Assembly (NCBI GenBank): GCA_902563305.1
Contig: CACEWP010000005.1
Coordinates: 4,211-68,210 of the forward strand
Length of the DNA: 64,000 nt
Source of the DNA: an uncultured Alphaproteobacteria bacterium
GTDB lineage: Bacteria; Pseudomonadota; Alphaproteobacteria; Methylaequorales; Methylaequoraceae
Reading direction: 5' to 3'
Within the stretch, counting starts at the first letter, position 1; every line of letters starts with the position of its first letter. Shown here in pieces: positions 10,778-55,790 of the stretch. The translations under genes were made by a program, and so were the position numbers. The notes beneath the pieces were generated by a model that saw only the letters and a program-made list of their open reading frames with translations, was not told the origin of the DNA and ran no database searches.

Positions 10778-10975
10778 TTTAATTTCTTCTTAATTATCGG
10801 TTATTACTTCAAATACAAACTTTATTAAAATCTAGCAATTTTAATACCATTTTGAATCTTGTAGTTTGTCTTCTATCTCTTTGTATTGTTCATTCAACTC
10901 TGATCGTATGTCTTCGTTTCATTTGCCCTTATTTGTTAAAGAGTGAATCCTCTTAAACCCTTTGTGAGTCTCCCT

Positions 10976-11008
10976 AAAACAAACAAGGGGGAACAATTGC
11001 CCCCCCTT
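10976..11008 (-). terminator. Intrinsic terminator at the 3' end of ssrA
   Basis: The minus strand reads CAAGGGGGGG-CAATTG-TTCCCCCTTG followed by TTTGTTTT. Confidence 0.6.
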
Positions 11009-11250
11009 GCCGATGAGACTTCTGTTGCCCGGTGGTCCCACAACCGCGCTTTCTTAATTTAATTAAGCAGCGAGTGCCATTTCATTATCATTGGCATTTA
11101 TATGTTTAGTCCGATAACGTTGGTACTATTCCGGGCAAAGTTTTTGACTATTCACACGCACGTCGATCCTGTTTCACCCCCATAAAATGTGGTGGAGGTG
11201 CCGGGTACCGCCCCCGGGTCCGCATCGGCTCAAAATCAAACGTTTATTGC
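10976..11250 (-). ncRNA. ssrA: Two-piece (permuted) tmRNA gene, alphaproteobacterial type
   Basis: The minus strand reads acceptor piece ...GCCGATGCGGACCCGGGGGCGGTACCCGGCACCTCCACCA, an 8-nt spacer, then coding piece GGGGGTGAAACAGGATCGACG.... The tag reading frame GCC AAT GAT AAT GAA ATG GCA CTC GCT GCT TAA (ANDNEMALAA*) is at 11063-11095. The 5' boundary is approximate. Confidence 0.85.
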
Positions 11251-11356
11251 CATAGCTGAAATTCAGCAATTTAATAATAATGAATGATAAAAAAAATAAA
11301 ACCTATAAATTGTTTTAGTATAAAAAAAAGCTAATATAGAAAAATCAGAGTTTTTT

Positions 11357-46649: not shown

Positions 46650-46812
46650 TCTCCCTAACTATTATTATTTTTATACTTTCTTCTGATACATAGTACTGAT
46701 CAATAGTATTTTTTATTGCAATTTTTATTGCACTTTCTTTATCTGTTGCGTGAATAGTTTCAAAATTTTTTCCATAAATTGGAATTTCTAATTCCACTTT
46801 ATACCATTTCAT
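46639..46812 (-). CDS. Candidate 57-aa protein translationally coupled to the DAACS transporter
   Basis: ATGA stop/start overlap with the transporter gene. Encodes MKWYKVELEIPIYGKNFETIHATDKESAIKIAIKNTIDQYYVSEESIKIIIVREINT*. Below the track cutoff. Confidence 0.4.
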   Translation of the reverse strand: MKWYKVELEIPIYGKNFETIHATDKESAIKIAIKNTIDQYYVSEESIKIIIVREINT

Positions 46813-48020
46813 TCTTTTTCACTTTTATTTATTACTATGGTTACCATAGCATCACCAGTTATATTGATTGACGTTCTTAGCATATCCAAAAATCTATCAA
46901 CACCCATCACAATAGCTATCCCCTCTAAAGGCAAACCTACTTGGTTTAAAACCATTCCTAACATTATAATACCAACACCTGGAACCCCTGCAGTACCAAT
47001 TGAAGCCAGCGTAGCAGTTAGGATAATTGAAATATAATCAGAAAAAAACAAATCAATACCATATAGATTAGCAATAAAAACTGTTGCTATCCCCTGCATT
47101 ATAGCAGTTCCATCCATATTAATTGTTGCTCCAAGTGGAATGGTGAATGAGGCAATATTTTCTTTAATATCAAATTTATTTTTCATACATTGCAATGTTA
47201 TAGGAATAGTTGCACTGCTACTTGATGTCGAAAATGAAAATAATAGTGCTTCTTTAATACCTTGAAAAAAATTACTAAGATTCAACTTCCCATAAAACTT
47301 TATTAGAGTTAGATAAACCAATACTGCATGAAAAATAAGTACAGTAATAACAAGAATAAAATACTTCAACAATTCAATTATTGATGAAAGACCCTGAGTG
47401 GCAAAAGTTTTGGCTATTAAACAGAAAATACCTAATGGTGCTATGATCATTACAAATGAGAGAATTTTCATTACAACATCATTAAAATCATTAAAAAATT
47501 TTTTTAATGTTTCAACACGCTTTGATATCGATAATGCACTCCCAATTAAAATTGCGAAGAAAATCACTTGTAACATTTCTCCATCCACTAGGGATTCGAA
47601 AGGGTTATTTGGAATAATATTTAATAAAATTTCAAAAAAGGAAGGCGGATCGGAAACCTTGATGTTAGTCGTTTCAAAATTCGAGTCAATGTTTTTTCCT
47701 GGTTGAAACAGATTTGCAAAGAAAAGAGAAGATGTTATGGCTAAAAAGGTAGTAGTTATATATAGCGCAACTGACTTTATACCTATTCTTCCTAAAGTAT
47801 TAAAATTATTGAGATTGGCCACACCTTTGATGAGTGAAAAAAAAACAATTGGGACAACCAGCATTTTAATTGTCTTAAGAAAAATATTTCCTCCAAATTC
47901 TAAAAGATTTATAATAATTTCTTTAAAGTATATAGGTATATTTAACCATCCGATTACAATGCCAAATAAAACTCCTAACATAAAACCAATGAAAATTTGT
48001 TGAGTTAAGTTTTTTTTCAT
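46809..48020 (-). CDS. Dicarboxylate/amino acid:cation symporter (DAACS, GltP/DctA-like)
   Basis: SSSSATIP, PLGATINMDGTA and VDRFLDMLRTSINITGDA (Asp and Arg of acidic-substrate type retained). Confidence 0.9.
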   Translation of the reverse strand: MKKNLTQQIFIGFMLGVLFGIVIGWLNIPIYFKEIIINLLEFGGNIFLKTIKMLVVPIVFFSLIKGVANLNNFNTLGRIGIKSVALYITTTFLAITSSLFFANLFQPGKNIDSNFETTNIKVSDPPSFFEILLNIIPNNPFESLVDGEMLQVIFFAILIGSALSISKRVETLKKFFNDFNDVVMKILSFVMIIAPLGIFCLIAKTFATQGLSSIIELLKYFILVITVLIFHAVLVYLTLIKFYGKLNLSNFFQGIKEALLFSFSTSSSSATIPITLQCMKNKFDIKENIASFTIPLGATINMDGTAIMQGIATVFIANLYGIDLFFSDYISIILTATLASIGTAGVPGVGIIMLGMVLNQVGLPLEGIAIVMGVDRFLDMLRTSINITGDAMVTIVINKSEKE

Positions 48021-48022
48021 AC

Positions 48023-48096
48023 TGGTGCCCTCTACTGGTTACGCTCCAGTGGCTGAGTCTTACCAAGACCCTGTTTTACTATTAAACTAAGAGGGC
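48023..48096 (-). tRNA. tRNA-type cloverleaf with anticodon GGU (Thr-type), encoded ACCA and atypical D/T loops; either a divergent tRNA or a tRNA-like 5' leader
   Basis: The minus strand reads GCCCTCT-TA-GTTT-AATAGTA-AAAC-A-GGGTC-TTGGTAA-GACTC-AGCC-ACTGG-AGCGTAA-CCAGT-AGAGGGC-ACCA. Stems are 7/4/5/5 bp with one G-U pair. U8, A14, U33, A37 and G53-C61 are present. The T loop is not TTCRA and the D loop lacks GG. Confidence 0.55.
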
Positions 48097-48190
48097 GGTT
48101 ATTTGATAAATAATTAAACATTAATTAATAATAAACAAAATCCTTTTTAACTCAAAGGTGTGTTTAAAAAGAAAATAAAATGAGAATGAA

Positions 48191-49798
48191 TTATATATAA
48201 TTGAAACTGTTTGGTGTTACTTTGTTCCAATAAACATTTAATCTCGGGTCTGCAACATTTAATTTACCTTTTTTCATTAATTCACCAGTTTCAACTTTTG
48301 GATATATTTGGTCAGCCAATCTAATTTCACTTTCAGATAGTCTTCTAACTATATGCCTTCTGCTTAGTTCAGAAGGGTGATTGACCCCTACCGATTCTAA
48401 CAATTCCTTAAATACGAATAGTGTGTTTTTATGAAAACTTGAAGCTCTTTCTGATCTATCTTTTATATCAATAGCTCTATAACGCATGGGATCCATAGTT
48501 GCAATACCGGTAGGACATTCTCCAGTATGACATGATCTACATTGTATACATCCAATTGCAAACATAAATGGTCTAGCCATATTAACCCAGTCCGCTCCTA
48601 AAGAGCACATGTGAGCAATGTCAAAAGCTGAGACTATTTTTCCTGACACACCAATTTTTACTCTTTTTCTTAAATTTGATCCAATAAGCGCATTATCAAC
48701 AAAAATAATTGCATCTTTAAGAGGTGAACCAAGATGATCAGTAAATTCAGCTGGTGCGGCACCAGTGCCACCCTCAGCTCCATCAATTGTAATAAAATCA
48801 ATATATTTTTTTTTTAATACCATGGTCTTAACAATTGATATCAGTTCCCACGGATGTCCAATACACATTTTTATTCCAACGGGTTTATTACCAGAAAGCT
48901 TTCTTAATTTTTCTACAAAATCGAGTAGTTGTTTAGGTGTAGAAAATTCTTTATGTTTTGCTGGTGAAATACAATCCTTACCAACGTCAATTCCTCTTGT
49001 TTCTGCAATTTCTTCAGTTACTTTAGGCGCAAGTAGCATGCCACCATGACCTGGTTTTGCTCCTTGACTAATTTTTATTTCAATCATTTTAATCTGATTT
49101 TTTTTGGCCTTACTTGCAAAAGTTTTTGGACAAAAATCACCATTTTTATTTCTACAACCAAAATATCCTGATGAAATCTGCCAAATTGTATCTCCACCTC
49201 CACGCTCATGATATTTAGACATTGATCCTTCGCCAGTATTATGAGCAAATTTTCCAATTTTTGCAGCTTTATTTAAAGAAGTAATTGCAGGAGGCGAAAT
49301 AGCACCAAAGGATGTTCCTGAGATATTTAGAACAGACATATCATAGAAATTTTTACCAATACCTACTTTGGTTCTAAAATCTGAATTTGTAATTGAAGAT
49401 GGTGTAATTGAATGATTCAGCCATACAAAATCGTCGTCATACATTTTCTCCAGAGAACCAAACGGTCTCACACCACCGATATTCTTTGACCTTTGGTAAA
49501 CCATTGTTCTTTGGTTTCTAGAATATGGAACTTCATCATCATCTGTTTCCCAATAATATTGCCTTAATTCTGGCCTTATACTTTCTAAAAAAAATCTAAA
49601 CCTACCTAAAAGCGGAAAGTTCGATAAAATTGACCTCTTTTTTTGTAGGAAGTCCTTGAGCGAAATAATAAATAAAAAAAAACTTAAGAAAAAAATTATA
49701 GTAAAAAAAGAATTAAAAAAACAAGCTACACCTGAAATAGCAGATATCACAGCTGTGTAAACTAATAAAGAATATCTTCCCCAAATAATGTCGATCAT
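48191..49798 (-). CDS. FMN-binding glutamate synthase-family protein (GltB domain 2-like), membrane-anchored
   Basis: N-terminal TM helices. GAKPGHGG, DGAEGGTGAAP and CxxxxC..C Fe-S-like motifs. Confidence 0.8.
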   Translation of the reverse strand: MIDIIWGRYSLLVYTAVISAISGVACFFNSFFTIIFFLSFFLFIISLKDFLQKKRSILSNFPLLGRFRFFLESIRPELRQYYWETDDDEVPYSRNQRTMVYQRSKNIGGVRPFGSLEKMYDDDFVWLNHSITPSSITNSDFRTKVGIGKNFYDMSVLNISGTSFGAISPPAITSLNKAAKIGKFAHNTGEGSMSKYHERGGGDTIWQISSGYFGCRNKNGDFCPKTFASKAKKNQIKMIEIKISQGAKPGHGGMLLAPKVTEEIAETRGIDVGKDCISPAKHKEFSTPKQLLDFVEKLRKLSGNKPVGIKMCIGHPWELISIVKTMVLKKKYIDFITIDGAEGGTGAAPAEFTDHLGSPLKDAIIFVDNALIGSNLRKRVKIGVSGKIVSAFDIAHMCSLGADWVNMARPFMFAIGCIQCRSCHTGECPTGIATMDPMRYRAIDIKDRSERASSFHKNTLFVFKELLESVGVNHPSELSRRHIVRRLSESEIRLADQIYPKVETGELMKKGKLNVADPRLNVYWNKVTPNSFNYI

Positions 49799-55011: not shown

Positions 55012-55087
55012 GCCCAGGTAGCTCAGTTGGTAGAGCAAGCGACTGAAAATCGCTGTGTCGGTGGTTCAATTCCTCCCCTGGGCACCA
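55012..55087 (+). tRNA. tRNA-Phe (GAA), CCA encoded
   Basis: GCCCAGGTAGCTCAGTTGGTAGAGC...CTGAAAA...GGTTCAATTCC...CTGGGCACCA is a canonical cloverleaf with a GAA anticodon. Confidence 0.95.
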
Positions 55088-55091
55088 TCCT

Positions 55092-55790
55092 ATGAATAAA
55101 CTTAGAATTTTTATAGTTTTTATTTTTTTTGTTGCTCAATCATGCGAATTCAACGAGAAAAATTATTTTCCATCGGAAGGTGGTCTTAAGTGGTTATATT
55201 CAGTTAATATCAAATCTTCTTATACTGGAAAAAGTAATATAAAAAGAATCATGGTAACTAATTTAAGTGAGAATAATGAATCCAATGGTAAAAGTTTTTC
55301 AAGGTTGTACTCGGATGGAAGTTATTATTCATATGCTATAGATGATAAGAAGATTATCCGCACATCTGTAATTCTTGCTTTTTCTGACGGTATTGATGAG
55401 CCCGTCGAAAAAATAATCTATCCTGATTCTGATTTTATCCAAAAAGAATGGATTGTCCGTGAACAGCTATTTCTTGTAAAAGGTTTCCAACCACCCCTTT
55501 TGAATGTTCGACCAAGATCACAATTTGATATGAATTATAAGATTAAGAGGAGGTATAAAAAATTTAAAGTAAATGATTTATTTTTTGATGATTGCATTGA
55601 AATAGAAGGCAAAGGCAATTCAAACTTTATTGGTGATACCCGGTCAGGACCAATAGATGTAAAAATTGAGAATGTCGAGATTTTATGTAATGGAATTGGA
55701 TTGGTGAGGCAAATCCGTTCTGAGAATACAAATGCGTCAGCTTTTGGAAATATGACCTTAATTAAAAATCTAATGAGTTTTAATAAATGA
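55092..55790 (+). CDS. Lipoprotein of unknown function (paralog of 28745-29440)
   Basis: Lipobox VAQSC. Conserved blocks shared with the other copy (YFP..., FIGD...G.I...I, GIGL). Confidence 0.7.
   Translation: MNKLRIFIVFIFFVAQSCEFNEKNYFPSEGGLKWLYSVNIKSSYTGKSNIKRIMVTNLSENNESNGKSFSRLYSDGSYYSYAIDDKKIIRTSVILAFSDGIDEPVEKIIYPDSDFIQKEWIVREQLFLVKGFQPPLLNVRPRSQFDMNYKIKRRYKKFKVNDLFFDDCIEIEGKGNSNFIGDTRSGPIDVKIENVEILCNGIGLVRQIRSENTNASAFGNMTLIKNLMSFNK

Follow-up and report, generated by a model that had tools for sequence, protein, structure and literature searches.

In Escherichia coli, the tRNA-Thr(GGU) gene thrT sits in the thrU-tyrU-glyT-thrT-tufB operon, where a spacer of about 100 nt separates it from tufB, and its product has the canonical elbow nucleotides G18, U54, U55 and A58. 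In mitochondria, tRNAs punctuate the transcript: they adjoin same-strand protein genes, Shine-Dalgarno (SD) sequences are rare, the CCA end is added rather than encoded, and excision of the tRNAs releases leaderless mRNAs. A structure bearing the threonine anticodon can also stand beside a start codon as a regulatory element, as in the E. coli thrS operator, which consists of anticodon arms only, has no acceptor arm or CCA and controls the cognate synthetase (PMC9976931). As to the tRNA elbow, a review of the T loop treats U54, U55 and A58 as universally conserved nucleotides that matter for the fold of the loop, and the only exception that it mentions is A54 of the eukaryotic initiator tRNA, which gives A54-A58 (PMC7912444). 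Loss of G18 and of the T-loop consensus marks the non-proteinogenic tRNA-Gly of Staphylococcus aureus, which loses G19 as well and coexists with canonical isoacceptors (PMC4574755). Here we describe a 74-nt element on the minus strand (48023-48096) of a 64,000-nt stretch of DNA from an uncultured alphaproteobacterium (contig CACEWP010000005.1; hereafter the window), which ends 2 nt before the start codon of a transporter gene. We propose, with a probability of roughly 0.8 for the explanation as a whole, that it is a functional tRNA-Thr(GGU) of a streamlined marine alphaproteobacterium and that its excision leaves a near-leaderless transporter mRNA.

The element shares with E. coli thrT the isoacceptor, the cloverleaf, the anticodon loop, the pairs G1-C72 and C2-G71, A73 and the encoded CCA, and, as with thrT, a protein-coding gene follows it and is presumably part of the same transcript. 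It differs from thrT in the elbow, which here has A18, A54, G55 and U58 or, in some relatives, G54 and G58, and in the spacer to the following gene, which amounts to only 1-8 nt, so that the transporter mRNA cannot have an independent leader. With mitochondrial tRNA punctuation it has in common that tRNAs adjoin same-strand protein genes, that SD sequences are rare and that the genome is small, AT-rich and alphaproteobacterial. Unlike in mitochondria, the CCA is encoded, and only the 3' side of the tRNA adjoins an open reading frame (ORF), while 94 nt lie on its 5' side. Furthermore, processing and leaderless translation are what we infer here, and this for the junction described rather than for a genome-wide layout. 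The S. aureus tRNA-Gly is likewise a bacterial tRNA that deviates at position 18 and in the T loop, but in our case, of G18 and G19, only G18 is changed, and G19-C56 is invariant. The thrS operator is comparable in that a structure with the threonine anticodon stands beside a start codon; here, however, it is a complete tRNA, and the gene is an unrelated transporter.

Read along the minus strand from 48096 to 48023, the element begins with the acceptor strand GCCCTCT and the linker TA, continues with the D stem GTTT/AAAC around the loop AATAGTA, a single A, the anticodon stem GGGTC/GACTC around the loop TTGGTAA, the variable loop AGCC and the T stem ACTGG/CCAGT around the loop AGCGTAA, and closes with the acceptor strand AGAGGGC, the discriminator A and the encoded CCA (48025-48023). 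The anticodon GGT (48062-48064, minus strand), identified by ARAGORN and Rfam, lies in the loop CTTGGTAAG with U33 and A37. ARAGORN calls a tRNA-Thr(ggt) at exactly 48023-48096 on the minus strand. Rfam RF00005, run with laxer filters, gives 49.4 bits against a gathering score of 29 and covers the full model from 1 to 71. The canonical tRNA-Phe of the window reaches 69.2 bits with the same model, and the default (gathering-mode) filters missed the tRNA-Thr gene in the scan of the 64-kb window. It is thus a clear but sub-par Rfam match, and the T and D loops account for the deficit. The minimum free energy (MFE) fold of the 74-mer is the cloverleaf (-24.5 kcal/mol, z = -2.58), which remains the MFE structure in a longer piece with a 5' flank of 29 nt and a 3' flank of 62 nt.

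A first-pass annotation, made from the letters alone, had already seen the cloverleaf stems, the anticodon GGU, the encoded CCA and the distance of 2 nt to the ATG, and all of this holds on re-reading the minus strand. The same is true for the enrichment in G+C (48% vs. 29.1% for the window), for the D loop AATAGTA without GG, for the T loop AGCGTAA compared with the canonical TTCAATT of the tRNA-Phe at 55012-55087, and for GAGGG (48032-48028), in the 3' acceptor strand, as the sole SD-like run 5' of the transporter ATG. That annotation had also considered that a tRNA finder might simply report an ordinary tRNA-Thr. This is borne out in part: both programs call the gene, ARAGORN as tRNA-Thr, and it is ordinary in kind, but the Rfam score is reduced and the default Rfam filters missed it.

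The strongest evidence comes from relatives. A search of species-representative genomes, in which the transporter protein was the query and which was hence blind to the tRNA, returned 21 loci with 56-81% protein identity. All 20 loci that include the upstream flank have a tRNA-Thr(ggt) directly upstream of the orthologous transporter. The tRNA is identical to that of the window in 74 of 74 positions in 16 of these 20 species-level genomes, while the flanks on both sides are unalignable, which is the mark that strong purifying selection leaves when it acts on each nucleotide. Additionally, metagenomes were scanned with a pattern that required the design of the D arm and the anticodon arm together with a non-T at position 54, and this gave 87 stretches in two families; the matches L050 and L076 are unrelated and were set aside. 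In total, the element recurs upstream of the transporter in about 85 metagenomic stretches and 20/20 genome loci, far beyond chance. Type A, to which the window belongs, has the D loop AATAG[T/C]A and the T loop AGCGTAA. Type B has AATGG[T/C]A and GTCAGTA, occurs in eight stem variants and scores 46.8 bits with the Rfam tRNA model (gathering score 29).

Types A and B together provided 13 distinct sequences for a covariation alignment. In this alignment all 273 pair cells (21 stem pairs in 13 variants) are standard pairs. Both sides have changed in 10 of the 21 stem pairs, and changes are found in all four stems. The covariation score reaches 0.402, compared with 0.149 for shuffled controls (0/500), and no more than 2 pairs with changes on both sides are left when the 3' partners are slid. 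Invariant in the 13 variants are U8, A14, A21, G19, C56, G53-C61, the anticodon loop CUUGGUAAG (alignment columns 29-39 do not vary across the two types), G1-C72, C2-G71, A73 and CCA. The first-pass annotation had proposed such an alignment of orthologous leaders and had named stems without conservation or covariation as the result that would speak against it; the relatives, which belong to the order TMED127, give the opposite picture.

These data also bear on the idea that the element is a decayed tRNA or an integrase attachment-site remnant, that is, a pseudogene that happens to lie beside the transporter. The lower Rfam score, the miss by default filters and the non-consensus loops would fit such a remnant, but perfect conservation across genera with diverged flanks and compensatory changes in four stems without a single unpaired cell would not. 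Moreover, the neighbouring genes carry no signs of an integrase or a mobile element. A search of the element and its flanks with blastn against 50,697 phage records, aimed at a phage attP site or integration remnant, gave no match. We regard the remnant explanation as refuted by the conservation, the covariation and the lack of a phage match.

The names of the single-amplified and metagenome-assembled genomes among the relatives place them in the order TMED127 ("Methylaequorales") (PMC12542740, Table S3), and not in the Pelagibacterales, as the first-pass annotation had suggested; these names do not occur in the lists of a HIMB59 study. TMED127 bacteria have streamlined genomes of roughly 1.5 Mb and are proposed to be obligate marine methylotrophs (PMC12542740). 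The loci L001 and L005-L008 belong to the genus GCA-2691245 ("Methylaequor"), L013 and L015 to MED-G10, L010 and L021 to TMED13, and L011 (MED715) to TMED127 "Clade X"; the type-B loci come from CACBWF01 (L017, L018) and TMED211 (L016) (PMC12542740). We place L012, a metagenome-assembled genome named TMED13, in the genus TMED13 by its name. As judged from these sequences, the aberrant elbow spans at least five genera, with its two forms partitioned by genus. The window itself has 29.1% G+C; a crude ORF call puts its coding share at about 89%, and many genes overlap or are separated by spacers of 0-10 nt. It also contains a two-piece (permuted) tmRNA at 10972-11305 on the minus strand (Rfam alpha_tmRNA, 202.6 bits), for which ARAGORN gives the tag peptide ANDNEMALAA.

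What amino acid the tRNA carries can be judged from its identity elements. In E. coli, recognition of tRNA-Thr depends on G1-C72, C2-G71, G35 and U36. More generally, the threonine identity set consists of acceptor-stem pairs and anticodon bases (PMC9976931). Further comparison is provided by 13 phage tRNA arrays from IMG/VR (L022-L034), which contain tRNA-Thr(GGU) genes with the same design of the D arm and the anticodon arm, that is, of the 5' half, but with canonical TTCRATT T loops. The window gene is hence a standard tRNA-Thr except for its elbow. In the window, ACT and ACC make up 427 of the 796 Thr codons (54%), so that there must be a strong need for a GGU decoder. The related loci, 761 kb in total, contained no further tRNA-Thr, in a survey of loci and not a whole-genome census. 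The window tRNA-Thr probably carries the main load of ACY decoding, as far as sequences can tell. It would be charged by threonyl-tRNA synthetase (ThrRS) and read ACU and ACC codons.

The elbow is where this tRNA departs from the rule. The T loop (48039-48045, minus strand) consists of A54, G55, C56, G57, U58, A59 and A60 and is kept in about 63 metagenomic and 17 genome loci. The D loop (48077-48083, minus strand) has A18 in place of G and keeps G19, and type B and the phage tRNA-Thr have AATGGTA in the same gapless columns. In sum, type A has replaced G18 by A, U54 by A, U55 by G and A58 by U, while type B keeps G18 and U55 and has G at both 54 and 58. Both types retain G19-C56, which forms the outer stacking platform, as well as G53-C61 and a purine at position 57. 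Within the universal elbow set G18, G19, U54, U55, C56 and A58, only G19 and C56 are thus present in both types. We note that these nucleotides are consensus features and not criteria for membership among tRNAs; their replacement is a real anomaly.

As a baseline we parsed 177 tRNAs from phage arrays. The great majority (172/177) have T54-T55-C56 and A58, and 174 have GG in the D loop. Four (Asp, two Ile and Phe) show the same A54/T58 swap as the window, with the T loop ATCGTTx, and one, a tRNA-His, has A54/A58. A non-T at position 55, A18 together with G55, and G54/G58 were each found in 0 of the 177. The 54-58 swap therefore has natural precedents, while G55 with A18 has none in this sample. 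Like the eukaryotic initiator tRNA with A54-A58 (PMC7912444), the phage tRNAs with A54/U58 indicate that a tRNA can stay functional with another pair at 54-58. These non-U54 tRNAs, however, keep U55 and G18, whereas the window tRNA has G55 and A18 in addition and type B has G54-G58.

In type A, both partners of the two inner tertiary pairs are replaced together (G18-U55 by A18-G55 and U54-A58 by A54-U58), which would fit a coherent alternative elbow. In geometric terms, O6 of G55 could stand in for O4 of pseudouridine 55 (Psi55) as the acceptor of the A18 amino donor, and A54-U58 could take the place of U54-A58 in stacking on G53-C61. Positions 18-55 and 54-58 are perfectly associated with the type; as this goes back to one phylogenetic split, we claim no statistical covariation for it. 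With A54 and G55, the type-A tRNA cannot carry 5-methyluridine 54 (m5U54) or Psi55. We found no description of this tRNA in the searchable literature on aberrant T loops and on tRNA punctuation in bacteria or SAR11-like genomes; the SAR11 tRNA paper from the Ardell laboratory excluded unusually structured tRNAs and does not mention it. A non-canonical elbow that is conserved across an order is one real curiosity of this gene; the other is the conserved abutment of tRNA on ORF in an SD-poor, streamlined alphaproteobacterium, described below.

Could this be a specialised, non-proteinogenic tRNA-Thr, an extra copy whose elbow keeps it off EF-Tu, the ribosome or elbow enzymes and which has some other use, such as aminoacyl transfer or regulation, with ACY decoding left to a canonical tRNA? 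That G18 and the T-loop consensus are lost recalls the cell-wall tRNA-Gly of S. aureus (PMC4574755), a type also marked by weak EF-Tu binding, and U54, U55 and A58 are otherwise near-universal (PMC7912444; 172/177 in our baseline). Yet G19-C56, which is lost in the S. aureus species, is invariant here, and ordinary phage tRNA sets contain the A54/U58 swap as well (4/177). The 761 kb of related loci, although from partial genomes, hold no second tRNA-Thr that could take over the ACY codons, which account for 54% of Thr codons, and a genome of roughly 1.5 Mb leaves little room for redundant tRNAs. Such a specialised role is quite improbable in our view.

The gene that follows the tRNA (46809-48020, minus strand) encodes a GltP/DctA-like transporter of 403 aa from the DAACS (sodium:dicarboxylate symporter) family; the Pfam SDF match has 431.6 bits and starts at residue 5. 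Among the NCBIfam models, GltP gives 281, DctA 227 and SstT 154 bits, all under the cutoffs. A link to threonine through the transporter had seemed conceivable, SstT being a DAACS member, but SstT is the weakest match and GltP and DctA are the nearest, and we rejected it. The first methionine is aligned in all orthologues and the next one, M14, is not conserved; therefore the annotated start codon is right.

Between the CCA and the start codon (ATG, 48020-48018) lies the dinucleotide GT (48021-48022, minus strand), and this spacer varies in sequence and length among relatives. At the distinct type-A junctions, an ORF starts less than 40 nt away in 53 of 57 loci, and the other four look frameshifted or contain Ns. 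The spacer measures 1-8 nt in 51 of these 53 junctions and 16 and 24 nt in the remaining two; the commonest class has 2 nt, as in the window (20/53). For type B, an ORF begins 3-15 nt past the CCA in 16 of 16 distinct junctions. In some loci this ORF is the transporter, in others a conserved membrane ORF of about 80 aa that lies ahead of it.

In TMED211-like lineages, the ORF of about 80 aa (MNKKKRIDYWRWLGFILAVIGA...), which probably encodes a small membrane protein, lies between the tRNA-Thr and the transporter. It starts 8-12 nt past the CCA in the type-B loci L048, L057, L058, L081, L096, L107 and L111. Loci with this insert have the transporter start about 250 nt past the tRNA, and the same distance is seen in L016, L051, L055, L070, L082 and L094. 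In L063, L073, L102 and L103 the transporter frame looks interrupted, with the first long ORF about 160-360 nt past the tRNA; sequencing errors or real decay could be the reason. The aligned transporter start in L103 is GTG instead of ATG.

The close contact between tRNA and ORF is not restricted to the transporter. The canonical tRNA-Phe(GAA) of the window (55012-55087, plus strand; ARAGORN, Rfam) ends with ...GGGCACCA, which is followed by tcct and the ATG of an ORF of 232 aa (55092-55790, plus strand) that begins 4 nt past the CCA. The encoded protein has a lipoprotein-type signal peptide (MNKLRIFIVFIFFVAQSC) and no Pfam or NCBIfam match, and the junction contains no SD-like run. Both tRNAs in the window thus adjoin the start of a same-strand ORF, and in the related TMED127 loci that include the tRNA-Phe junction it is kept at 4-9 nt. 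Because a canonical tRNA abuts an ORF at a conserved junction as well, we take the abutment to be a habit of the genome rather than an arrangement peculiar to the transporter. The distance of 2 nt would then follow from intergenic DNA that is pared to almost nothing in this genome. In the relatives L041, L061, L093 and L105, the tRNA-Phe ends with ...GGGCACCG or ...CACCT instead of ...CACCA, and the ORF starts 4-5 nt away. Since the terminal A is not encoded there, a CCA-adding enzyme would be needed.

We can now ask whether GAGGG (48028-48032, minus strand) serves as an SD sequence. The run stands 7 nt ahead of the ATG, and its bases are paired when the precursor context adopts its MFE fold. 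An SD core (GGAG, GAGG or AGGA at positions -16 to -4) precedes only 6 of 59 window ORFs, and this genome appears to initiate translation largely independently of SD sequences. Such a core also occurs within the last 12 nt of 25 out of 177 unrelated phage tRNAs (14%), including 4 of the 13 canonical phage tRNA-Thr. None of the 16 type-B junctions has an SD core, although the abutment on the ORF is retained. Finally, the distance from GAGGG to the ATG follows the spacer, and type-A loci differ in it by more than 20 nt. Owing to the SD-poor genome, the chance rate of 14%, type B without a core and the variable spacing to the ATG, we judge GAGGG to be incidental; it appears to be a by-product of the tRNA-Thr acceptor stem and not a ribosome-binding site.

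This weakens the second of the two options that the first-pass annotation had left open, namely a tRNA-mimicking leader, a cis-regulatory 5' untranslated region that hides the SD sequence and is opened or bound by ThrRS, RNase P or EF-Tu in the manner of the thrS operator. The position of GAGGG 7 nt before the ATG, its pairing in the precursor fold and the linkage of tRNA and transporter across the order are what one would expect of such a leader. However, the element has the full set of tRNA features, with an invariant anticodon loop, identity pairs and an encoded CCA, and a role as a mimic or processing signal is unlikely because neither would need the anticodon loop to be invariant. The findings on the SD core described above count against a hidden ribosome-binding site in equal manner, as does the tRNA-Phe, which abuts its ORF without any SD-like run. 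Furthermore, the transporter is a generic DAACS member and not SstT-like. Three features of a thrS-type operator, i.e., a partial mimic, a cognate or linked gene and a conserved ribosome-binding site, were all absent here. A regulatory leader is therefore very improbable, and no new class of leader or riboswitch is present.

A related possibility is that the unprocessed precursor is translated and the acceptor strand acts as a real SD sequence whenever the tRNA is unfolded, so that tRNA maturation competes with translation. GAGGG is spaced near-optimally in the window, as it is in the junction class that is most common, which would suit this idea, and a spacer of 1-2 nt would leave little space for a clean 3' cleavage that spares the start codon. 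Nevertheless, the poverty of the genome in SD sequences, the type-B junctions and the tRNA-Phe parallel argue against it. In addition, an acceptor stem of 7 bp with five G-C pairs and a precursor fold dominated by the cloverleaf would rarely expose the SD sequence. We regard translation of the precursor as rather improbable.

The other option of the first-pass annotation, an atypical tRNA that is transcribed together with the transporter and then cut off its mRNA, is the one that the data favour: ARAGORN, Rfam and covariation establish the tRNA status, and spacers of 1-8 nt leave no place for a separate promoter. Upstream of the tRNA lies a gene with a glutamate-synthase domain (48191-49798, minus strand), separated by a spacer of 94 nt. 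This spacer contains a single consensus match to a promoter, the candidate TTGAGT-16-TATTAT (48128-48155, minus strand). A cross-locus promoter search over about 75 distinct loci gave best matches scattered 0-90 nt upstream in the AT-rich DNA and proved unusable. No terminator-like site was found around the tRNA/transporter junction in the window. Inside the tRNA, inspection by eye gave no -10-like hexamer with the required A2 and T6 at a sensible distance from the ATG; an internal promoter was rejected also because variation is seen in the spacer but not in the tRNA. Since the spacer of 1-8 nt has no room for a promoter or terminator, none was found, and no plausible internal -10 exists, the transporter is most likely transcribed by read-through from upstream of the tRNA.

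Based on this, transcription of tRNA and transporter would start from a promoter in the 94-nt spacer. RNase P would set the 5' end of the tRNA, and a 3' endonuclease would cut at or just after the CCA. The transporter mRNA would be left with a leader of 0-8 nt and be translated without an SD sequence, as seems to hold for most genes of this genome. The parts of this proposal are not equally firm. That the element is a real decoding tRNA is very probable as judged from its sequence and conservation, co-transcription with the transporter is likely, and that the form translated is a processed, near-leaderless mRNA is plausible, though with clearly less confidence.

Four points weigh against the proposal. 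With a spacer of 1-2 nt, the usual bacterial cut a few nucleotides past the CCA, followed by exonuclease trimming, would hit the start codon, which is at odds with the survival of both products. The support for the promoter is one consensus match in AT-rich DNA. The status of the gene as the sole tRNA-Thr(GGU) of the clade would rest on 761 kb of loci and not on complete genomes. Lastly, since U54, U55 and A58 are near-universal, it is an assumption that a tRNA with G55 and A18 works fully on the ribosome.

In summary, we find in TMED127, an ocean lineage of high abundance, a cytoplasmic bacterial elongator tRNA in which both partners of two tertiary pairs are replaced and which appears frozen by selection in at least five genera. 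The textbook "universal" nucleotides G18, U54, U55 (as pseudouridine) and A58 build the elbow, a recognition site for RNase P, the ribosome, TruB/TrmA-type enzymes and T-boxes, and this tRNA is thus a natural experiment on what the elbow requires. A practical consequence is that pipelines based on covariance models may under-annotate the tRNA-Thr(GGU) gene in TMED127 genomes. One may speculate further that TMED127 uses tRNA excision routinely to make leaderless mRNAs and that the rebuilt elbow is an adaptation which alters handling by RNase P, the 3' endonuclease, TruB or the CCA enzyme and so sets the partition between tRNA and mRNA. We consider this extension unlikely, but if routine tRNA excision were true, it would be the counterpart of mitochondrial tRNA punctuation in a free-living bacterium. 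Independently of this, the conserved tRNA-ORF junctions of 1-8 nt, which both tRNAs of the window show, suggest that extreme streamlining can push a free-living bacterium toward a mitochondrion-like, tRNA-punctuated and SD-independent mode of expression.

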